This document shows positions 25,087 to 46,483 of a stretch of DNA of 64,000 bases, piece after piece. Source of the stretch: an uncultured bacterium. GTDB taxonomy: Bacteria > Eisenbacteria > RBG-16-71-46 > CAZHEV01. The position numbers and the translations under genes are program-made. Where the stretch lies: positions 130,429-194,428 of the forward strand of contig CAZHEV010000003.1 in assembly GCA_964531335.1 (NCBI GenBank). The letters are read 5' to 3'. The first letter of the stretch is position 1. Each line of letters opens with the position of its first letter. The notes beneath the pieces are model-generated. The model did no database searches and was not told the DNA's origin. It saw only the letters and a program-made list of their open reading frames with translations.

Positions 25087-27968
25087 GGTTGAGAAGTATG
25101 GGTTCCCATGCCGGGACCCAGCACGATCGCGTTCATCAGTAGCCTGCCCGTGCCCAGGTACTGCGCCCTGAAATAGGGATCGTTCAGAAAGAGTATTATT
25201 TGGCCCTCACCCACGCTCTCCCGGGTAAGATATGCGGTCTTCGCCCAGCGTGTCCTGGCCTCGGGCCACAGCAATCCTGAGACCCTCATTTCCGCCTTTT
25301 CCGCCAGCCTGCCGACCGTTTCCACGGGCGGCTTGGACATGAAGGCGCTGCGGCTGAATAGGACTGCCGGCACCTTGTCACCCGATCCTGATGCGAGCCA
25401 GTGCTCCTGGTCGAGGTCGACCCTCAGCATTGCCCCTTGAGGTCTGAACAGGCGAAGCATCTCATCCTCGGCCTTGAGCTCCTGGGACGACTTCTTCGCG
25501 GCCTTCTCGCCCTTCTCTCCGCCCTCGTCGGCTTCCTTCTCCCGTGGGGACCACTCCCAGATCTCCAGGCTGTCTATGGGGGCGGGCTCCACAGGCTCCA
25601 TCTTCAGCGCGTCCTCATATTCGTCGAGCTTATTGATCGCTTGGCGGCGAAGCCTGACCGTGCCGAGCCCAAGGCTGGTATCGGCCAGGGCCGTGGCAGC
25701 CGAGCCCATGGCGATAAGCGTGCCCCCGTCCTCTATCCAACGCTTCAGCTTTCGCACGCCCCCGCGGCCGAGGACCTCTCCGTAAGCTCGCCCCCATGAG
25801 TCGGGCATGATAATCACGTTGTACTTGTCCAGCTCGGCCCGGTGCAGGCGCCCGATGTCCAGCCTAGACGACCTCGTCCCGAGGACATGGTCGAGCATGA
25901 ACCATATGGCGCCGTAGGAGCTCGAAGATATCGGCGATCCACCGAGCAGGCACACCCTGGGCGCCTTGAGGAGCTGGAAACGCCTGGCGCCCAGATCAGG
26001 GCCCTCCTGGCTGAGAGCGCTCGCCGCGCCTATGGCGTCGACGCCGGTTTCCTCGCATACGCGCTCGAGTATGGAATGCAAGTCCTCAGGGTTCTCGACT
26101 CCCCTGAGAAGGAAGCTTCCCCTTACGAAGTCCACTCCGGCCGCGCGGAAGGGCTTCGTCGCGTGGCGGACGCTGCATCCTGCCTCCATCAGGGCGGTCG
26201 CCGCGGAAAGGGCCTTGTCCCTGCGACCGTCGATCAAGTAGCCGTAGGCGCCGTCGCCGCGCACCCTCCCCGGCTTTTGCTCCGGGGCCGTGGCGTGCTC
26301 CAGGTCCCCGCGGACGTCGGAGCTCGACGAATAACACTCGATCCCTGCGGCGATGGGCAGAGACCAGGCGGTCACGTCGTATATCCTGCTTCGCTTGTTC
26401 TTTTCGAGCTCGTATCTCTCCTCCTCCAGAGAGCTGGTGGTCATCCTCGGATCGAACTCCAGCAGGGTCTTGGCCAGAAGCCCCATGGGCTGGGCGAGAG
26501 GCACGACGTAGCTTCCGGGCGCAAGCGTCTTCGAGCCGTAGGATTCGCCCCAGTAATCGGCGAGCCCTCTGGTCTTGACCGCTCCCTGGGCGGTCCTCAC
26601 TTCAATCCCTTGCCGCAGCAGGCTCGCGACGAGCTGGTCCACCCGCCCGGGTTTGTCGCCGGGCACGAGGACGAACGCCTTCTCCTGCGAGCCCAATCGC
26701 CCTTTGCTGGACCTCGACTTCTCCAGGTAGTAGTCCCTCAGCAGCTCGTCCTTGTTCTTGGCCGCCGTTTGGAGGTTCGCCATCGAGCTTATGAATTGAT
26801 GATGCACGGTCTCACCGTAGGTCAGGAAAGACCCGTCGTGGCGCTTGATGAGGGACCCTTCCACTCCGGCCTGCTCGTAGAGTATCCCCAGGGCGCCCAG
26901 ATACAGCGACCATGAGCTGCCGTAGCCGGGGAACCACTCCTCGTTCCACTCCCTGGTGTAGTAGCTCCAGCCGTAGCGGTCGAACGCCCGGGCCTGGTCC
27001 TCCGCGAAGGCCTTCCACCACTTCTTCATCCTGGGAGTCATGTTCGGGTTGAAAGGCTCTCGCGGAGGGGAAAATAGATACGTGTCGAAGGCGCCCATCT
27101 CGTGGGAGTCGACAAAGAGCTGGGGATTCCATTCCACGATGGCCTCCACCTTGCCTTTTGTCTCGGGATGTATCTGGATGTACCAGTCCCTGTTGAGATC
27201 GAAAAGGTAGTGGTTTCCTCTTCCGCCCGACCAGAACCCGGTGTGCTCGAAGCTCTGCGTGTCCCAGTTGGGGCGGACGCCTTCGACCTGCTCCATCATG
27301 GCCAGGAAGCGCTCCCTTCCGTCCGGGTTCTGAAGCGGGTCTATTATCACAACCAGCCGGTGCCGCAACGATTCCGTCAGGCTATCCGTGCCCGCCGCGA
27401 GCTGATAGGCGAGCTGCACGGCGGCGTCCGTGCTGGAGAGCTCGTCGCCGTGGATGCTATAGGCCATCCATGCCACGGCCGGAGTCCTTGCGATCAGGGC
27501 TTCAAGCTCCCTATCGCCTCTTATTTCATTCGTGTGCGCCAGCCGCCTGAGTGAGCCCTTGATCTCGTCCAGGCGCGCCATGTTGTCCCGCGACGACACG
27601 ATCAGGTAATAGAGGGTCCGGCCCTCGTGAGTACGGCCGTACTCGACCATATCGACGAGCGGGCTCGCCCCGGAAAGCTGCTTCAAATAGCCTATTAAGT
27701 CATCGTATCTTACCGGGGAGCGCGCAACCGGCGCGCCCAGGTATTGGGAGGGGGCGGGGACGGCCGGGTCATAGGTGCCGTCCGGGTAGAGGGGCGCGTC
27801 GTACGTAGGCGGCGCTTCGGTTACAGGGCCGACGGCGCCGGATCCCGCGGAAACGTGACCTGGATGAGCCCACAGGGCTGACAGGCACAGGAGCGCCGCG
27901 GCGCACAGAATGTGGCGCCGGCTTGCGGTCGCGCCGCGCCTGTCGGACATCTTCGCAGTCCATCTCAT
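25080..27968 (-). CDS. Secreted M14-family zinc carboxypeptidase, very large multidomain
   Basis: Signal peptide (HILCAAALLCLSALWA), M14 zinc motifs HGDELSS ... HEMG, and a long C-terminal extension. Start set to the internal Met with AAGGAGG RBS (27968) rather than the track's 28325. Confidence 0.7.
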   Translation of the reverse strand: MRWTAKMSDRRGATASRRHILCAAALLCLSALWAHPGHVSAGSGAVGPVTEAPPTYDAPLYPDGTYDPAVPAPSQYLGAPVARSPVRYDDLIGYLKQLSGASPLVDMVEYGRTHEGRTLYYLIVSSRDNMARLDEIKGSLRRLAHTNEIRGDRELEALIARTPAVAWMAYSIHGDELSSTDAAVQLAYQLAAGTDSLTESLRHRLVVIIDPLQNPDGRERFLAMMEQVEGVRPNWDTQSFEHTGFWSGGRGNHYLFDLNRDWYIQIHPETKGKVEAIVEWNPQLFVDSHEMGAFDTYLFSPPREPFNPNMTPRMKKWWKAFAEDQARAFDRYGWSYYTREWNEEWFPGYGSSWSLYLGALGILYEQAGVEGSLIKRHDGSFLTYGETVHHQFISSMANLQTAAKNKDELLRDYYLEKSRSSKGRLGSQEKAFVLVPGDKPGRVDQLVASLLRQGIEVRTAQGAVKTRGLADYWGESYGSKTLAPGSYVVPLAQPMGLLAKTLLEFDPRMTTSSLEEERYELEKNKRSRIYDVTAWSLPIAAGIECYSSSSDVRGDLEHATAPEQKPGRVRGDGAYGYLIDGRRDKALSAATALMEAGCSVRHATKPFRAAGVDFVRGSFLLRGVENPEDLHSILERVCEETGVDAIGAASALSQEGPDLGARRFQLLKAPRVCLLGGSPISSSSYGAIWFMLDHVLGTRSSRLDIGRLHRAELDKYNVIIMPDSWGRAYGEVLGRGGVRKLKRWIEDGGTLIAMGSAATALADTSLGLGTVRLRRQAINKLDEYEDALKMEPVEPAPIDSLEIWEWSPREKEADEGGEKGEKAAKKSSQELKAEDEMLRLFRPQGAMLRVDLDQEHWLASGSGDKVPAVLFSRSAFMSKPPVETVGRLAEKAEMRVSGLLWPEARTRWAKTAYLTRESVGEGQIILFLNDPYFRAQYLGTGRLLMNAIVLGPGMGTHTSQPW

Positions 27969-35556: not shown

Positions 35557-36174
35557 ATGAAAGAGCTTACAGATCGGCAGAGGGACGTTCTCGATGTGAT
35601 TCTCTCCTCGGTGGGGGAGACCGGGCGCTTTCCCTCCTACAGGGAGATAGGCCGGGAGCTGGGCATGAGCTCCGTGGCCACGGTCGGCCAGCACATGGAG
35701 GCCCTCGTGGCCAAGGGAGCCCTCAGAAGGGACGGCGACCTCCTTGCGGTGAATCCTGCCCTGAGGGGCGACAAGGGGATCCCCATAGTGGGCCGGATCG
35801 CGGCCGGCGCCCCCATAACGGCCATCGAGCACCTGGAGGGGACATTGGACCTGGCGGGAATCGTAGGCCGCGGGGGGACACACTACGCCGTGAGAGTAAA
35901 GGGCGACAGCATGGTCGAGGCGGGTATCCACGGGGGAGATCTGGTCGTGGTGCGCCTTCAGTCGACCGCCGAGAGCGGCGACACGGTTGTCGCGTACCTC
36001 GGCGAGGAGCAGGAGGCGACGGTCAAGGTTCTCTACAAGCGCAGATGGGGTTACGAGCTTCAGCCCCGGAACGCGGATTACGAGATCATAAAGATAAGGA
36101 GAGACGATCCTCACTTCCGCCTGGGCGGGAAAGTGGTGGCCGTGGTGAGGAAGCTGTCGGGCAAGAAGGTATAA
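35557..36174 (+). CDS. lexA: LexA repressor (SOS regulator, S24 peptidase)
   Basis: N-terminal wHTH (LTDRQRDVLDVI...YREIGRELGMSS), AG cleavage site (IAAGAP), catalytic Ser (KGDSM) and Lys (VKVLYKR). Confidence 0.9.
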   Translation: MKELTDRQRDVLDVILSSVGETGRFPSYREIGRELGMSSVATVGQHMEALVAKGALRRDGDLLAVNPALRGDKGIPIVGRIAAGAPITAIEHLEGTLDLAGIVGRGGTHYAVRVKGDSMVEAGIHGGDLVVVRLQSTAESGDTVVAYLGEEQEATVKVLYKRRWGYELQPRNADYEIIKIRRDDPHFRLGGKVVAVVRKLSGKKV

Positions 36175-36180
36175 CGGGAA

Positions 36181-36435
36181 ATGCAGGTAGAGCACTTGAA
36201 CGAAGCGATCAAGGTAAGGGCGGATTTTCAAGGCGGCAGGATCGTACCGCTCGTCTTCAAGCGGAAGGACAAGAACTACAGGGTGACGCAGGTCAACGCC
36301 GCCTGGGAGGACAGGGAGGGTACGCAAAAGCTCTACTTCTTCTCCGTGACCGCCGACAGCGGAGACGTCTATCAACTGCGATTGAGCGGCAAGGACATGA
36401 CCTGGTATGTCGACCTGGTGATGATGGAGGGGTAG
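36181..36435 (+). CDS. Hypothetical 84-aa protein inside the lexA-polIV-dnaE2 cassette
   Basis: ORF begins 7 nt after the lexA stop on the same strand (MQVEHLNEAIKVRADFQGGRIVPLVFKRKDKNYRVTQVN...). No family recognised. Confidence 0.45.
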   Translation: MQVEHLNEAIKVRADFQGGRIVPLVFKRKDKNYRVTQVNAAWEDREGTQKLYFFSVTADSGDVYQLRLSGKDMTWYVDLVMMEG

Positions 36436-36662
36436 CGGGAGCGGACGGGAGCCACCCACCGTGACTGATTGATTCCGTTCCTGGCTTCTGTCCCACCGGC
36501 CCCCCATCGTCGCCGGGCGCACGGAGCGACCGCGGATCCGAGCGCGTCGCCGAGGATCTCTCCCGCCTTGTGCCGGGCCGGAAAGCCTGGTCATGGCCTC
36601 CGGCGAGATCCGGCTTCGTTCTGAAGTCATAAGCTATCTCTTCCTCCATAAGGGCCCCCTGA

Positions 36663-37865
36663 ATGAGCTCGTCGATAATGCACGTGGACATAGACGCCTT
36701 CTTCGCGTCCGTAGAGCAGCTGCGCAATCCGTCCCTTCGCGGCCGGCCCGTCATCGTGGGGGCCGGCGTGATAGCGAGCTGCTCCTACGAGGCGAGGCGT
36801 TACGGCCTCAAGGCCGGGATGCCGTTGCGCGAGGCGATGCGGCTGTGCCCGGGCGCGGTGATCCTGGACGGCCACGCGCAGGTCTATCGCTGCTTCGCCG
36901 AGCGGGTGTTCGACGTGTGCCGGGAGATCGCGCCGGGCGTTGAGACGCACCTGGACGAGGCCTACTGCGACCTCGGGGGGACCGCGGCTCTCTATGGTGA
37001 CGCGGTCCGCGCCGGCGAGAGGCTGCGCCGGGAGGTCGAGCTGCGGGTGGGCCTTTCGGTGACCGTGGGGCTCGGCGGCAACCGCATGATCGCGAAGCTG
37101 GCCGGGACGACGGTGAAGCCGGGCGGGGTGAGGGTCATAGAGGACGGGCGGGAGCGCGAGTTCGTGGAGGGGATTCCCGTGCGGGATATCCCCGGCGTGG
37201 GCCGCGCGAGGGCGGAGGTGCTTCGAAAGCTCAACGTTCGGACCGCCGGCGACCTGGCGGCCTTTCCGCTTCCGCACCTTCGCATGCTCTTCGGCCGAAA
37301 CGGCGAGGTGCTCTACAGGCGGTGCAGGGGATCGGACGGCGGCCTGCTCGACAACGAGATCCCCAAGTCCATTTCCAGGGAGACCAGCTTCCAGCACGAG
37401 ACGGGGGACCGGGGCGAGATAGAGGGAACGTTGCGATATCTCGTAGGGCGCGCGGCCAGGACGCTGCGTGGGCTGGCGCTCTCGGCGCGAACCGTCTCCG
37501 TCAGGGTGCGGTACGCGGACGGCGAGGGCCGGGAGAGGGCGCGCACGATGCCCCGACCGGCGCGTCTCGACACGGAGCTGTTCGAGCTGTGCCTCTCCTT
37601 GGTCGGGCCGATGCTGGAGCGCCGGTGCGGGCTGCGCCTGGCCGGCGTGTCGCTGTCCTGTCTCTGCCGGGGGTCGGCTCCGCAGGGGGATCTGTACGAA
37701 GAGAGCAGGTCGTTCCGGGAGGCTGAGCTGTGCGGCGGCCTGGACAGGGTGCGCGATCGTTTCGGACACGGCGCCGTCGTGTCGGGGCGTGCTTTATATC
37801 TTATGGGCAAGGTAAAGAGGGACAGATATGGATATATCCTACGCACCCCTTCGCTTACGAAGTAA
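36663..37865 (+). CDS. dinB: Y-family DNA polymerase (Pol IV/DinB-like, catalytic residues intact)
   Basis: HVDIDAFFASVE (catalytic Asp pair) and HLDEAYCDL (Asp-Glu) conserved as in E. coli DinB D8/D103/E104. 3' end overlaps dnaE2 by 38 nt. Confidence 0.75.
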   Translation: MSSSIMHVDIDAFFASVEQLRNPSLRGRPVIVGAGVIASCSYEARRYGLKAGMPLREAMRLCPGAVILDGHAQVYRCFAERVFDVCREIAPGVETHLDEAYCDLGGTAALYGDAVRAGERLRREVELRVGLSVTVGLGGNRMIAKLAGTTVKPGGVRVIEDGREREFVEGIPVRDIPGVGRARAEVLRKLNVRTAGDLAAFPLPHLRMLFGRNGEVLYRRCRGSDGGLLDNEIPKSISRETSFQHETGDRGEIEGTLRYLVGRAARTLRGLALSARTVSVRVRYADGEGRERARTMPRPARLDTELFELCLSLVGPMLERRCGLRLAGVSLSCLCRGSAPQGDLYEESRSFREAELCGGLDRVRDRFGHGAVVSGRALYLMGKVKRDRYGYILRTPSLTK

Positions 37866-40800
37866 CTACTCGCTCCTGGCCGGCACCATGACGCTCGAGG
37901 AGATCGTCGAGCGCGCCTGCCGGATGGGCCTTGGCGCGGTCGCGCTTACCGATATCAACAATCTCTACGGCGCGGTGAGGTTCCAGGAGCTGGCGCGGGC
38001 GCGAGGGCTCAAGGCGATCGTGGGCGCGGAGCTGCGCGCGAAATCGGAGGCGGCCACGCTGTTGGCCAGGGACGGGGAAGGCTACGCGAACCTCTGTCGT
38101 GCCCTGACGCGCCTTCACCTGGGACGGGATGCGGCGGCTGAGGCGGACGCCGCGGGCGAAGAGGCCCCGTTGGAGGGGCTTCTCGAGGGCGGCGCGGGTG
38201 GTCTTTACTGCATGGTGGAGGAGCCGGCTCTCGCCGAGCGGCTGTTGGGTCTTTTCCCGCGCGAGCGCCTGTGGCTCGAGCTTGCCGGCCCCGGCAGGGC
38301 GTCACGGGTCTGGGAGCGTAACGTTCGGGCGGCGCGCTCTATGGGAGTCGGCGTGGTGGCGACGGGGGAGGCGTGGTTCGGCGCCGCCGAGGACTGGGCG
38401 CTCCACAGGGCCCTGCGGGCCGTGGCCGGGAGGACCCTCGTCCAGCGGGCGGGCGCGGTGGAGGGAGTCGCTCATCCCAACGCCTACATGGCCACGCCGG
38501 CCCAGATGACCAGGCGGCTGGGACGGCTGTCCTGGGCTTTGGAGGAGTCGGCGCGCATCGCGCAGGACTGCGACGTGACGCTGGAGAGCGGGGGGCGCGT
38601 CTTTCCGGCCTGCGCGCTGGAGCCCGGCGAGACGGCGCGCTCCAGGCTCACGCGGATGTGCCGTGAGGGGCTCAGGACCCGCTACGGGCCGTCGCCGGGC
38701 CACCGGGTGCGCAGGAGGCTGGAGAGGGAGATCGAGGTAATAGACAATCTCGGCTTCTGCTCTTACTTCATAGTCGTGGGCGAGATCGTGGCCTGGGCCA
38801 GGGGGCGTGGGATAGCCGTGCTGGGCCGGGGCTCCGGAGCGAGCTCCCTTGTTGCGTACCTGCTCGGCATCACCGGAGTGGACCCGCTGCGCTACGGCCT
38901 GGTGTTCGAGCGGTTCATGAACTCGCGAAGGCCGGACTACCCGGATCTGGACGTGGACCTGTGCTGGCGGCGGCGTGACGAGGTAATAGATCACGTCTAT
39001 GAGAAATACGGAAACGACAGGGTAGCGATGATCTCCACTCATGTGACTTTTCAGAAGCGCTCGGCGGTGAGGGAGATGGCGAAGGTGTGGGGCCTCGCGC
39101 CTGATGATCTCCTGAAGACCTTGAGAGAATGGGAGCGGATGCGCGAAAGGGGGCACGGCGCTGCCCTGGAGGGCCGGGGCGGGCCGCTGTCAAGGGAGCC
39201 CCTCAGGACCGCCCTGGCCATGGCGCGCAGGGTGCAGGGCTTCCCGAGGCATATCGGGATTCATTGTGGGGGGCTCGTAATCGCGCCGGGGCCGCTGGCC
39301 GAGATGGCGCCGCTGGAGCGCGCGCCCAAGGGGGTCGTCGTCACGCAGTACGAGATGGACGCGGTGGAGAGAGTGGGCCTTGTGAAGATGGACCTGCTGG
39401 GGAACCGGGGCCTGACGATGGCGCAAGAGTGCATAGAGCTGGCGGCGTCGCGCGAAGGCCGCGCGGAAGGGGACGGCGCTCCGGGCGACGCGCGCGCCTG
39501 GCAGGGCGCGGGCCGGGCGGGCGGCGATCGTTCCCGCGGTGACGGGTCCGCGCCGGATGGCGGTTCGGGCCGGGCGGCGGCGGGCGCCGGCGTACGCGGC
39601 GTGCCCGCGAGCATGGAAGACATACCGGACGGCGACGCGAAGGCCGCGGAGCTCTTGCGTGCGGGCGATACGCTGGGTTGCTTCCAGATCGAATCCCCCG
39701 CCATGCGCCGGCTGCTGTCGATGATCGAGCCCGAGGGCTCGGACGAGGTGATCGCGGCGGTGGCGCTGGTGAGGCCGGGACCTTCGGGATCCGGTATGAA
39801 GGACGTATTCATAAGGCGGAAGCGCGGCCTCGACAGGACGAGATTCACGCACCCTTGCCTCGCTCCGGTGCTCAAGGATACCTACGGGGTGATGCTCTAT
39901 GAGGAGGACGTCCTCAAGGTTGCGGCGGTCGCGGCCGGGCTTCCCCTCGAGGACGGCGACGATCTGCGACGCGCGATGGTCGAGGCCGGCCGGGGCCGAG
40001 AGCTGTCCGAGGTCCGGCGGGGGTTCTTGGAGCGCGCCGCGCGCAGGGGGGTTGACGCAAAGGCGTCCAGGGCGTTGTGGGAGGATCTGTCCAGGTTCTC
40101 TTCATATGCCTTCTGCAAGGCGCACGCCGCGGGCTACGGGCTTCTGGCGTATCGTACTGCATATCTCAAGGCACACTACCCGGCCGAGTACGCCTCCGCC
40201 GTGCTGAACAACCATGCCGGAATGTACCCGACTAGGGTGCACCTCGAGGACGCCCGGCGCCGGGGGATCGGGATAATCGGGCCCTGCGTCAACTCGTCCG
40301 GCGCGGGGTTCACCGTCGAAGGAGGAGCGATCCGCGTGGGGCTCAACCGGATCAGGGGCCTCAGGGCCGCCGCCGTCGATGACATAATCACGGCCAGGAA
40401 GGAGGGCGGCGCCTTCAGGTCCTTTTCGGACCTCCTGGCCCGTGCGGCACTGTCGTCGCCGGAGGCCGAGGCGCTGGCGCTGGCCGGCGCGCTGGACTTC
40501 ACCGGAGCGGCGCGACCGGCCCTTCTTCTGGAGGCGCTCGCGTGGTCGAAGGGCAGGGGGGGCCGGCACGCGGCGGGGCGGCCGCTTCTGCCCGATCTCG
40601 GACTGACCGCGCCCGTTCCGGGGATGCGCGAGTTCGACCCCGGGCTGCGCGCGGAGATGGAGGCACGGCAGCTCGGGCTCACGCCGAGTCGCCATCCGGT
40701 CGAGGACCGGCCGGCTCCGGCGGGTTCCGGCGCACGCGGCGCCGGGCAGCGCTTGACGACGTGCGCGGGGCTGAAGGCGCGGGTGGGCCGGCGTGCCGCG

Positions 40801-41091
40801 ATCGTGGGCGTGGTGTCGGCCCGCAGGCGCATTCGGACCGAGGGCGGGGAGGCTATGCTATTTCTCACAATAGAGGACGCGACCGGGCTCGTGGAGGTGG
40901 TGGTGTTCCCCCACGCGTACAGGCGGGTGCGGGTCGATCTCGACGGCAGGGGGCCTCTGTGTGTGACCGGAAAGGTGGAGGACCACTACGGGGCGCTGAC
41001 ACTGGTGGCGGACGCTGTCGTAGCGGCGGGCCGGATGGAGGACCGCGACTCGGCTACGCGCGGATCCTGTGCGCCGTGGGGAGGAGGCTGA
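37828..41091 (+). CDS. dnaE2: Error-prone DNA polymerase III alpha-family (DnaE2 / ImuC)
   Basis: 1087 aa with a PHP domain N-terminus (MDISYAPLRLRSNYSLLAGTMTLEEIVERA), LVKMDLLGNRGLT and GDTLGCFQIES polymerase motifs. Size and SOS context are typical of DnaE2 rather than replicative DnaE. Confidence 0.75.
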   Translation: MDISYAPLRLRSNYSLLAGTMTLEEIVERACRMGLGAVALTDINNLYGAVRFQELARARGLKAIVGAELRAKSEAATLLARDGEGYANLCRALTRLHLGRDAAAEADAAGEEAPLEGLLEGGAGGLYCMVEEPALAERLLGLFPRERLWLELAGPGRASRVWERNVRAARSMGVGVVATGEAWFGAAEDWALHRALRAVAGRTLVQRAGAVEGVAHPNAYMATPAQMTRRLGRLSWALEESARIAQDCDVTLESGGRVFPACALEPGETARSRLTRMCREGLRTRYGPSPGHRVRRRLEREIEVIDNLGFCSYFIVVGEIVAWARGRGIAVLGRGSGASSLVAYLLGITGVDPLRYGLVFERFMNSRRPDYPDLDVDLCWRRRDEVIDHVYEKYGNDRVAMISTHVTFQKRSAVREMAKVWGLAPDDLLKTLREWERMRERGHGAALEGRGGPLSREPLRTALAMARRVQGFPRHIGIHCGGLVIAPGPLAEMAPLERAPKGVVVTQYEMDAVERVGLVKMDLLGNRGLTMAQECIELAASREGRAEGDGAPGDARAWQGAGRAGGDRSRGDGSAPDGGSGRAAAGAGVRGVPASMEDIPDGDAKAAELLRAGDTLGCFQIESPAMRRLLSMIEPEGSDEVIAAVALVRPGPSGSGMKDVFIRRKRGLDRTRFTHPCLAPVLKDTYGVMLYEEDVLKVAAVAAGLPLEDGDDLRRAMVEAGRGRELSEVRRGFLERAARRGVDAKASRALWEDLSRFSSYAFCKAHAAGYGLLAYRTAYLKAHYPAEYASAVLNNHAGMYPTRVHLEDARRRGIGIIGPCVNSSGAGFTVEGGAIRVGLNRIRGLRAAAVDDIITARKEGGAFRSFSDLLARAALSSPEAEALALAGALDFTGAARPALLLEALAWSKGRGGRHAAGRPLLPDLGLTAPVPGMREFDPGLRAEMEARQLGLTPSRHPVEDRPAPAGSGARGAGQRLTTCAGLKARVGRRAAIVGVVSARRRIRTEGGEAMLFLTIEDATGLVEVVVFPHAYRRVRVDLDGRGPLCVTGKVEDHYGALTLVADAVVAAGRMEDRDSATRGSCAPWGGG

Positions 41092-41124
41092 GCGGCGTAG
41101 GGCGGGCCGGTCGGCCCTCGCGCT

Positions 41125-43898: not shown

Positions 43899-44273
43899 TA
43901 TGAGCCTCCGCTGGTGACGGCGAACGACCTCCGCTGTACAAGCCCGAGGATGATGCTCCCTGAAAACCGCTATGGGCCCGGCGCCGGATCCGGATCGTAC
44001 CGCAAGGGCCCAACAAGGGCGTGCCGGCCCGCCGGGAAGCGATCGCGGACGGGCGGCGTGTATCTCCTACACGGTGCATGTTAGGGCATTCAACTTGGCG
44101 GTTCAAAGTGAAAAACGGTCCGAGGGTGATATTGACCAAGAGGTTTGCGTATGCTACTTTGCTTTTACCGTACACCGGTGCGCTGATCGTGAGTGGCATA
44201 CCCTTCGCGCCGGCCCGTCTCAGAACGATCGCTGATCAAACCACCAGCTCCCCGGCTTAAAGGAGCCCTGAAG

Positions 44274-45554
44274 ATGAATGTGGTGCTCTTCGAAGACGAC
44301 TCGCACAGGACGCTCGCTCCGCTTACATACGCTCGCCCTGTCTTCTACATGAGAAACGGGGCCTACACGGCCGACGAGAGGGTCCGCGCCCTCTATCCGG
44401 ACAGCGAGATACGGTACCTGTGCAGGCAGTACCTGGCGCCCAGCGTAAAGAAGATCTCCGGGGGCGCCCAGGTGAACACGGCGCCGGATCAGGGCTGCCT
44501 GTTCCTGAACGGCGCCGCGCTCGCCGGAGGGAGCGACCTCGCGCGCCTTGTGGAGGACCTGCCCGACGGGTCGGCCCTGATATCGGATCGCAGGCTCCTG
44601 GCCGCCAAGGTCGGTCGGTCCGGGGCGTTCGAGCTGTTCGGTTATCTCCAGGTGCTCCTGACCAGGAGCGCGGGAGAGCAGGGCGGCACCGCGCCGGTCG
44701 CCGAGTCCCTGCGGAAGCTGGGCATCGCGACGGAAGAGGCGGGAGCATCGCTCGCCCGCTTCGTGTGGGATATCATAGGCGCCGCGGAGGAGATGCTGGC
44801 GAAGGACTGGGCTCTCTTCAAGTCGTCCGCTTCTTCACTGGACGCTTCGGTCAGCGGCGGAGCGTCCCTGATCTCGAGAGACTCGGTGCATATAGGCGCC
44901 GGCGTCCGCGTGGAGACCGGAGCCGTCATCGACGCGAGCGAGGGGCCGGTCATCCTGGACCATGAGTCCAAGGTCATGGCGAACACGGTGATATACGGGC
45001 CTTGCTACGTGGGCAGGAAGACTTTGATAAAGGCCGGGGCGAAGATATACGGGCCCTGCTCTCTGGGCCCGGTGTGCAAGCTGGGCGGCGAGATAGCCGA
45101 GACGATAGTGCAAGGCTACAGCAACAAGCAACACGACGGGTTTCTCGGGCACGCGTATCTGGGGGAGTGGGTGAACATGGGCGCCGGCACCGAGGTGAGC
45201 GACCTGAAGAACAATTACGGTCCGGTGAAGGTATGGGTCGACGGCGTAATGGTGGATTCGGGGGAAGTCTTCGTGGGGCCCACGATAGGAGATCATACCA
45301 AGACGGGGATAAACAGCATGCTAAACTCGGGATGCGTGATCGGATTCTGCAGCAACGTGTTCGGCTCCGGCTATCTGCCGAAGTTCATCCCGAGCTTCTC
45401 CTGGGGCGGTGGGGACGGCCTCTCGGAGTACGATCCGGCCAAGGCCATGGAAACCGCCAGGGTGGCCATGTCGCGCAGGGGGGTGGAGCTGGACGAGGCG
45501 GGCGAAGCGCTCTTCAGGGAAATATACGACATCACAAGACCGGAGCGCGATTAA
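44274..45554 (+). CDS. Putative sugar-nucleotidyltransferase-like protein with C-terminal left-handed beta-helix (hexapeptide repeats)
   Basis: N-terminal MNVVLFEDDSHRTLAPLTYARPVF lacks the canonical GxGTRL loop. The C-terminal half has repeated [LIV]G hexapeptide pattern (IGAGVRVETGAVI...KIYGPCSLG). AAAGGAG RBS before ATG 44274. Confidence 0.45.
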   Translation: MNVVLFEDDSHRTLAPLTYARPVFYMRNGAYTADERVRALYPDSEIRYLCRQYLAPSVKKISGGAQVNTAPDQGCLFLNGAALAGGSDLARLVEDLPDGSALISDRRLLAAKVGRSGAFELFGYLQVLLTRSAGEQGGTAPVAESLRKLGIATEEAGASLARFVWDIIGAAEEMLAKDWALFKSSASSLDASVSGGASLISRDSVHIGAGVRVETGAVIDASEGPVILDHESKVMANTVIYGPCYVGRKTLIKAGAKIYGPCSLGPVCKLGGEIAETIVQGYSNKQHDGFLGHAYLGEWVNMGAGTEVSDLKNNYGPVKVWVDGVMVDSGEVFVGPTIGDHTKTGINSMLNSGCVIGFCSNVFGSGYLPKFIPSFSWGGGDGLSEYDPAKAMETARVAMSRRGVELDEAGEALFREIYDITRPERD

Positions 45555-45620: not shown

Positions 45621-45676
45621 CCTTCAGTTTTACTCCGGACATCGCGTTAGCCGGCCCCCGGCCGGCTTCAGACGCC

Positions 45677-45892
45677 TCAAGAGCCTCCGAATCCTATGGT
45701 GACCTTCTCGCCTTCGACTATGACCGGGACCTGCCGGCTGTTGTTGCTGTACGAGAGCATCTTGTTCATGCCCTCAGAGTCCTTGGTCACGTCTATGTAC
45801 GTGAATGGCGTCTTGTTCTTCTCCAGATGCCGCCTGGCATCGGTGGTGTAAGGTCAAGTGTCCTTTCCGAATACCAAGACATTGTCGGGCAT
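45677..45892 (-). CDS. Candidate selenoprotein: glutaredoxin-like (YruB/NrdH-like) thioredoxin-fold protein with in-frame UGA (UPYT in place of CPYC)
   Basis: GGGGAGG RBS 6 nt before ATG (45892); in-frame TGA at 45854-45856; the same frame continues 58 codons to TGA 45677-45679. Translation: MPDNVLVFGKDT-U-PYTTDARRHLEKNKTPFTYIDVTKDSEGMNKMLSYSNNSRQVPVIVEGEKVTIGFGGS. Hairpin GAUGCC-AGGC-GGCAUC starts 12 nt after the UGA. Confidence 0.55.
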
Positions 45893-46042
45893 CTCACACC
45901 TCCCCTGGTTCTCCCACCGGGCCGCTTCCTCGGTTTCCCCGCCAAGATTAACCGCGTGGGGACGTCGAGTCAACCGCCGATGCGCCCGGGACGGCGCGGC
46001 GTCGTCTTGACCGCCCGGCCGCCCGGCTGCTAGCCTCCGTTC

Positions 46043-46483
46043 ATGGTCTCGGTCAAAGTCATCGCCGTGCCCGATCCTCCGGCCGGGCGAGCCTCTTACG
46101 TGCACTATCCGCTTTGGTTCGTGTGCGTCAAGATATCCTGGAAGAGATTCCTTCTCTCCGACAAAGTCGCCCGCGCGTGGTTCTGTGTGGACGGGGCGAG
46201 GGGCGCCGCTTGCAGAGTGGACGGGCTTCCCGAGAACGTCCCCCGCACCCTCGCGGAAGATACGCTCTACCCGCTGGGCGTGGACCGGGAGGCCGCCTTG
46301 AGAGGGGCTATTTCATCCGCTCGATCGTGGGCCAGGGCGAAGCTCTTCTGCTGGTGGCCGCCGTTTCTCGAGGTCGAGGAGACGGCGCTCGTCTACAAGC
46401 CCTACGTCATCGAGGGCGAGAGAGGAGAGTTCGTGAAGGACCTGCTCACGGGGGAGAGGCTGAAGCTGGACAGGCGCGGATAG
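46043..46483 (+). CDS. Hypothetical protein
   Basis: 146-aa ORF in an otherwise uncovered gap. The C-terminal half (VYKPYVIEGERGEFVKDLLTGERLKL) looks protein-like, but there is no RBS and the start is ambiguous. Confidence 0.25.
   Translation: MVSVKVIAVPDPPAGRASYVHYPLWFVCVKISWKRFLLSDKVARAWFCVDGARGAACRVDGLPENVPRTLAEDTLYPLGVDREAALRGAISSARSWARAKLFCWWPPFLEVEETALVYKPYVIEGERGEFVKDLLTGERLKLDRRG

Follow-up and report, generated by a model that had tools for sequence, protein, structure and literature searches.

UXX-star selenoproteins take their name from the way they end, with selenocysteine (Sec), two residues and a stop, and families of this kind are reportedly described by Haft and Tolstoy (mSystems, 2025). 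One of them is curated as NCBIfam NF041114, "UXX-star selenoprotein family 1". A 2026 review lists this family as "Distant Grx-like protein 1", with the motif UxxT and two Sec residues. The same review gives the bacterial SECIS model (bSECIS) as an apical loop of 3-9 nt on an upper stem of 4-16 bp, with a G in the first two loop positions and the loop 16-37 nt from the UGA. Sec at the first active-site position is also found in the selenoprotein glutaredoxin of Clostridium oremlandii (UxxC; PDB 4TR1 and related entries).

Here we describe a gene in a 64,000-nucleotide stretch of DNA, referred to below as the window, which adds one member, from an uncultured lineage, to this known selenoprotein family. 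The stretch flagged by the original prediction is, with high probability, a real, intact and unannotated gene in which both in-frame UGAs are most likely read as Sec. The proposed Sec-containing glutaredoxin-like protein was upheld, its translation scoring above the cut-off of the curated family. As the family is already curated and reviewed, the finding is not new; what makes it interesting is the annotation failure and the two-SECIS architecture, not the novelty of the family.

Reading frame and family of the gene

The gene lies on the minus strand (Table 1). The ribosome-binding site and the ATG were read directly from the DNA; from the ATG, translation yields 12 sense codons (MPDNVLVFGKDT) leading to a first TGA. 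Past this codon the frame is open for 58 further codons to a second TGA, beyond which come GGC GUC and then a third TGA. The motif UPYT occupies residues 13-16 of the translation. Support for the ribosome-binding site comes from two relatives, L081 and L084, which have GGAGG at the same place, and support for the start from homologues beginning at the same M-x-x-x-V-L-I-F position.

Table 1 Predicted features of the selenoprotein gene, in positions of the window
Feature	Position	Strand	Description
RBS GGGGAGG	45899..45905	-	6-nt spacer TGTGAG before ATG 45892-45890; read directly
Complete CDS (predicted)	45668..45892	-	74 codons + stop: MPDNVLVFGKDT-U-PYTTDARRHLEKNKTPFTYIDVTKDSEGMNKMLSYSNNSRQVPVIVEGEKVTIGFGGS-U-GV-stop
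First in-frame UGA, predicted Sec13 of UPYT	45854..45856	-	position of thioredoxin-fold nucleophilic Cys
SECIS 1 (candidate)	45823..45846	-	core 6-bp stem and lower stem; inside coding region
Second in-frame UGA, predicted Sec72	45677..45679	-	third residue from C-terminus; TGA in homologues
Predicted true stop UGA	45668..45670	-	after Gly73-Val74; family profile ends here
SECIS 2 (candidate)	45649..45667	-	8-bp stem AGCCGGCC/GGCCGGCU, loop GGG; wholly 3' UTR

All coordinates given by the original prediction for the ribosome-binding site, spacer, ATG, first TGA and 58 open codons proved correct. The second TGA had been taken for the stop of a 71-residue protein, and this part had to be revised: reading through it fills the family profile and raises the score from 98.8 to 107.9 bits, giving a product of 74 residues. 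With this TGA as a second Sec codon, the gene therefore extends to the third TGA and comprises 74 codons.

Also accurate was the statement that the open reading frame track had missed the gene. The gene calls of the source contig (Logan SRR7048218_620, 109 kb) lack it and place only a 51-aa ORF there, on the opposite strand (45696..45851, +). No Pfam or other family matched this ORF, whose whole length overlaps the conserved gene on the minus strand; the in-frame UGAs have almost certainly given rise to a spurious call. The lesson for annotation is that standard gene callers miss such a gene and put a spurious antisense ORF in its place.

For profile scans against Pfam and NCBIfam, the translation was used with U replaced by C. 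Against NF041114 (cut-off 72 bits), the alignment of the 71-residue version ended at profile position 67 of 70, while that of the 74-residue version covered positions 1-70 of 70. The 58 codons downstream of the first TGA scored 78.3 bits against this profile when taken alone. The Pfam Glutaredoxin model PF00462 was matched at E = 5e-13 (49.4 bits; threshold 22.9). The label "YruB/NrdH-like" given by the original prediction stands insofar as the fold is glutaredoxin-like, as the PF00462 match indicates. Membership in either family does not stand and was ruled out by low scores (48.5 bits against a cut-off of 88.55 for YruB, TIGR02196; 29.7 against 85.75 for NrdH, TIGR02194) together with the missing CxxC, UPYT being without the second Cys and the CVQC-type motif of NrdH being absent. 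Comparison with classical glutaredoxins gave a mixed result: the Pfam domain is present, which indicates the fold, but the score did not reach equivalog level (37.2 bits against a cut-off of 90 for Grx3, TIGR02181), and scores against the GRX_euk and GrxA models fell far under their cut-offs, so that the protein does not look like a classical Grx.

The features that define membership in NF041114 are all present, namely a U-X-X-stop end, an N-terminal [U/C]-x-x-T motif and a score of at least 72 bits. Judged by its predicted sequence, the protein is a member of this family. Common to the protein and NF041114 are the [U/C]xxT motif, Sec as third residue from the end, the number of Sec residues (two) and the size, about 70 residues; nothing essential differs between them.

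Conservation of the UGA codons and their hairpins

A protein search returned 328 relatives, which for the most part have 68-72 residues and carry the name "glutaredoxin 3" or "UXX-star selenoprotein family 1". These protein records all finish at ...TIGFGG[ST] because they are truncated at the C-terminal UGA. In P0001 (locus L081, 79% identity) and P0009 (locus L083), W is recorded at both Sec positions because the contigs were translated with a table in which TGA is Trp. Public records of homologues are thus either truncated at GG[ST] or carry Trp at the Sec positions.

The DNA sample comprised 80 loci from one-genome-per-species contigs, 58 metagenome loci and the contigs of P0001 and P0009. 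Lineages represented included Vicinamibacterales and other Acidobacteriota, Binatia, Methylomirabilota, Thermodesulfobacteriota, Deltaproteobacteria, Syntrophobacteraceae, Anammoxibacter, Tectomicrobia and Eisenbacteria. Pattern parsing yielded 118 genes, of which 114 were distinct, and 23 further loci lay outside the pattern. The homologues are related, so the counts given here do not represent independent events.

In every one of the 118 parsed homologues the codon after GG[STA] is TGA, and exactly two codons and then a stop follow it. The last two residues are GV in 60, EV in 38, AV in 7 and SV in 5, and the final stop codon is TGA in 47, TAG in 44 and TAA in 27. The same ending, with a variant GG motif, was seen at 21 of the 23 loci outside the pattern; taken together, about 139 of the 141 homologous loci, which span many phyla, have the C-terminal TGA, two codons and stop. 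By chance, a stop would fall at exactly that place in about 4% of genes.

Of the 114 distinct homologues, 73 have TGA at codon 13 and 41 have TGC or TGT; among the homologues, the active-site motif reads UPYT in 65, CPYT in 42 and UPFT in 6. A comparison with homologues had been suggested in the original prediction, and its outcome is favourable: Cys aligns with the first UGA in those 41 genes. Position 13 alternates freely between Sec and Cys in the sampled homologues, and the C-terminal Sec is never Cys. Two distant homologues (L140 and L141, 37% identity) combine a true CPFC motif with a U-G-F-stop tail; the C-terminal Sec therefore also occurs beside a complete CxxC site.

The candidate SECIS element after the first UGA (SECIS 1) is translated, encoding D-A-R-R-H-L. 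Its core, GAUGCC-AGGC-GGCAUC (45841-45826), begins 12 nt after the UGA, and a 3-bp lower stem (CCA/UGG) across a 2-nt bulge extends the hairpin to the limits given in Table 1. The loop of 4 nt (AGGC) has G as its second base and starts 18 nt after UGA-13, in agreement with the bSECIS model. Segments of 42-61 nt around the hairpin fold at -12.5 to -16 kcal/mol, with z = -2.9 to -3.2 against dinucleotide shuffles. The 6-bp hairpin named in the original prediction was thus recovered with the same sequence and at the same place, folding beyond shuffles and conforming to published bSECIS criteria. The folding check proposed for positions 45800..45860 gave a divided answer: the single-sequence fold was clear (at the z values above), while no family-wide consensus structure after UGA-1 was obtained with RNAalifold on a MAFFT alignment, because the register of the lower stems shifts from lineage to lineage.

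Conservation in related genomes, which had also been raised as a check, was found in the two closest relatives. L084 (83% identity) has GAUGCC-AGGA-GGCAUU at the place of SECIS 1, and L081 (79% identity) has AAAUGCC-AGGA-GGCAUUU. In L081 a compensatory exchange turns the closing pair from G-C into A-U, through two non-synonymous changes (D to N and L to F). The window lineage (the window, L081 and L084) differs from the common family in having Arg-Arg instead of Arg-Glu after Ala19. It therefore has an AGGC or AGGA tetraloop on a perfect stem of 6-7 bp, whereas the top of the hairpin in the common family is GCC-CGUGA-GG.

Only two apical pairs can be aligned family-wide at site 1, and pair statistics are weak there. 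Of 69 sequences, 66 have C-G at the first of these pairs (columns 20-28) and 64 at the second (columns 21-27). A scan for contiguous stems, which under-detects interrupted hairpins, found stems at 37% of sites against 20% of shuffles, and a codon-level comparison was used in its place. Ala19 is encoded by GCC in 71 of 73 UGA-type genes against 14 of 41 Cys-type genes (p = 9e-14). The only two genes with GCU at this position both have a compensating A at the partner position. Arg20 is never CGC in the 73 UGA-type genes (CGU, CGG or AGG only), against 14 of 41 Cys-type genes (p = 1e-7). Codon usage at the top of the hairpin thus shows a constraint at the level of the RNA that is specific to UGA-bearing genes.

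The second candidate element (SECIS 2) begins at the first base after the stop. It lies wholly behind the stop and is therefore free of coding constraint. Its loop starts 17 nt after UGA-72, and the hairpin agrees with the bSECIS model in loop size, stem length, loop G and distance. The original prediction was unaware of this hairpin, which is the stronger of the two and directly follows the true stop. No T-run was found 3' of it, and the hairpin is therefore unlike an intrinsic terminator.

Stems of 5 bp or more that fit the model are present at site 2 in 97% of 112 homologues. Raising the minimum to 6 bp leaves 83%, compared with 23% of shuffled sequences (p = 5e-41). From UGA to loop the distance is mostly 16-19 nt, and the loop starts with G; the commonest loops are GGC, GGUC, GGU and GGG, carried on 85 different 5' arms. 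RNAalifold on the MAFFT alignment gave no consensus after UGA-2, the stems being out of register between lineages, and this problem was solved with a covariance model. The model (R1) was built from 19 homologues of one geometry, with the window and its close relatives left out. Searched against 128 kb, both strands, with filters off, its top match was 45645-45679 (-), at 28.4 bits and E = 3e-7. The runner-up in the window, 25090-25121 (+), scored 13.6 bits (E = 0.018); it reads UGA GAA GUA UGG with no stop two codons on and was judged a chance match.

In a structural alignment of 72 sites, 95.1% of positions were paired, compared with 58.7% in shuffled sequences and 23-41% with the partner slid; as the alignment was fitted to the model, it favours pairing, and its sequences are related. 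Double changes occurred in all seven of seven pairs (151 cells), and none of 500 shuffles reached the observed covariation score.

Genomic surroundings and competing explanations

In tblastn searches with E. coli SelA, SelB and SelD, there was no match below E = 1 in the 64-kb window, and selA, selB and selD were likewise absent from the flanks of the 141 homologous loci. ARAGORN found no tRNA genes in the window, tRNA-Sec included, and a scan of the whole window at Rfam gathering thresholds gave no match. A search of the window for other UGA read-through or selenoprotein genes yielded nothing convincing. Predicted Sec insertion in this organism rests on the signals of the gene itself and on the behaviour of its family. 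Elsewhere in the window UGA is an ordinary stop, ending for example the 1087-aa DnaE2 gene. With TGA as an ordinary stop in a window of 63% G+C, the recoding is a local matter, and the genetic code itself is unchanged.

The convergent neighbour is a sugar nucleotidyltransferase of the NTP_transf_4/hexapeptide type (44193..45554, +), and the same nucleotidyltransferase adjoins the gene in L081 (363-1661, -). Further neighbours are a 146-aa hypothetical protein, a response regulator with an HD-GYP-type domain and an Hpt protein. When the neighbours at 114 loci were clustered, no partner gene common across phyla emerged. At 34 of the 114 loci the gene is followed by a kinase and a nucleotidyltransferase, by eye aminoglycoside-phosphotransferase-like and MurU-like; this pairing is lineage synteny. 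A nucleotidyltransferase stands near the gene in both arrangements, but it differs between them, and its presence may be coincidence. The gene appears to stand on its own. A single sigma-70-like promoter match was found in the region (46104-46131, -; TTGACG, 16 nt, GATAGT), about 210 nt upstream of the ATG.

An additional observation concerns the DnaE2 gene (37828-41100, +), which ends ...WGGG-TGA; the next codons are two for Ala and a stop, and the loop of a hairpin, GGGCC-GGTC-GGCCC, lies 17 nt past this TGA. Formally this is the U-X-X-stop arrangement, but chance together with a terminator is the probable explanation, given that model R1 had no match at this place. LexA, an 84-aa ORF, a Y-family (IMS) polymerase and DnaE2 follow in a row at about 35600-41100 (+), a row that resembles an SOS-inducible imuA-imuB-dnaE2 mutagenesis cassette.

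Several other accounts of the selenoprotein locus were weighed against recoding at both UGAs. If only UGA-13 were recoded, the TGA at 45677-45679 would be the stop of a 71-residue protein and the hairpin behind it a terminator shared with the convergent gene. A terminator would indeed be expected where the hairpin lies, since the genes on either side of this 113-nt gap converge, and public gene calls end the homologues at the C-terminal TGA. Against this, every parsed homologue continues with two sense codons and an in-frame stop, with Val conserved as the last residue; the loop keeps its fixed distance from the UGA and its first G; the T-run is absent; and the curated profile itself holds the three extra residues, whose addition brings 9 bits. 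We consider this account improbable. A pseudogene account, in which a glutaredoxin gene is decaying and yields no full-length protein after its Cys codon (TGC or TGT) turned into TGA, is very unlikely, and so is an assembly error with the same effect. A single base change would suffice for this, a Cys codon is indeed present in 41 of 114 homologues, and the annotation of the source contig has no gene on this strand; yet TGA occupies the exact codon in 73 of the 114, in several phyla, and independent metagenome contigs (79-83% identity) carry both TGAs and both hairpins. The downstream 58 codons are intact and by themselves exceed the family cut-off, and synonymous sites in the hairpin are constrained in UGA-13 genes only. 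Decay would be expected to show as frameshifts or extra stops among close relatives, or as TGA genes that have lost the hairpin; neither was seen.

That the UGAs are read as Trp or another standard residue, whether by an alternative code or by near-cognate suppression, is hardly credible. The W recorded at both positions in P0001 and P0009 might seem to favour it, but these residues derive from the translation table of the gene callers. Moreover, the G+C content of the window and the long genes in it that stop at TGA speak against such a reading, the residue aligned at codon 13 is Cys and never Trp, and a dedicated hairpin accompanies each UGA. Insertion of Sec at both UGAs thus remains the preferred reading of the locus.

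Possible role of the two predicted selenocysteines

Under recoding at both UGAs, each UGA would be served by its own hairpin, whose apical loop, 17-18 nt downstream, would recruit SelB with Sec-tRNA(Sec). By analogy with established knowledge of SelB, from which the delivery step is taken, SelB-GTP-Sec-tRNA(Sec) would bind the hairpin loop and deliver Sec when the UGA is in the A site.

As predicted from its sequence, the protein is a minimal glutaredoxin/thioredoxin fold. Only five residues follow the last beta strand (strand 4), and the usual C-terminal helix is absent; 7c12, among the closest solved glutaredoxins, has about 17 more residues beyond this chain end. Residue 13 would stand at the start of helix 1, where a thioredoxin fold has its nucleophile. 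UPYT has Thr where CxxC has its second Cys, and so would provide no resolving Cys. Sec72 would sit on a Gly-rich tail, GFGGS-U-GV, probably beside the loop that borders the active site in glutaredoxins. Given no resolving Cys and a Sec72 close to the active-site loop, the two selenols are probably a redox or ligand-binding pair. The most likely pairing would be a Sec13-Sec72 diselenide here and a Cys13-Sec72 selenenylsulfide in the Cys13 homologues. Such a pair would be comparable to the mobile C-terminal GCUG arm of mammalian thioredoxin reductase. The invariance of Sec72 in about 139 homologues, with residue 13 being Sec or Cys, suggests that the tail Sec is the indispensable group.

To our knowledge, textbook accounts place bacterial SECIS elements in coding sequence. 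We propose, tentatively and as a single joint reading, that a 3'-UTR SECIS for a C-terminal Sec is a natural exception conserved across several phyla, and that the protein may be either a Sec13-Sec72 diselenide oxidoreductase or a two-selenolate ligand for a metal or metalloid, with Sec72 as a catalytic residue supplied through the 3'-UTR SECIS. Metal or metalloid binding has been raised for UXX-star proteins in the 2026 review.

The 225-nt gene would be a compact natural case of two differently placed SECIS elements, one translated and one in the 3' UTR, and this layout could serve the engineering of C-terminal selenocysteine tags.

Compared with known proteins of similar fold, the window protein shares with YruB and NrdH (TIGR02196 and TIGR02194) its small size, the layout of beta1, active site and alpha1, and a V-P cis-proline segment. 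Sequence matches to solved glutaredoxins are weak (7c12, E = 2e-4; 4tr1, E = 0.01). It differs from the Clostridium oremlandii glutaredoxin and from classical glutaredoxins (PDB 7C12 and 7C10) in its UPYT motif, without the second motif Cys, and in lacking the C-terminal helix and the GG-x-DD glutathione-binding end, having instead its predicted second Sec on a short tail.

A Sec placed a few residues from the C-terminus on a Gly-rich tail is likewise found in mammalian thioredoxin reductase, which ends in GCUG. That enzyme is an unrelated flavoenzyme, and any likeness to the UXX-star tail would be one of function. In 1999, Arner et al. (J Mol Biol) reportedly expressed thioredoxin reductase in E. 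coli with an engineered SECIS after the stop codon. There, too, a bacterial-type SECIS worked from the untranslated region after a stop; that arrangement was engineered, whereas the one proposed here would be natural and conserved.
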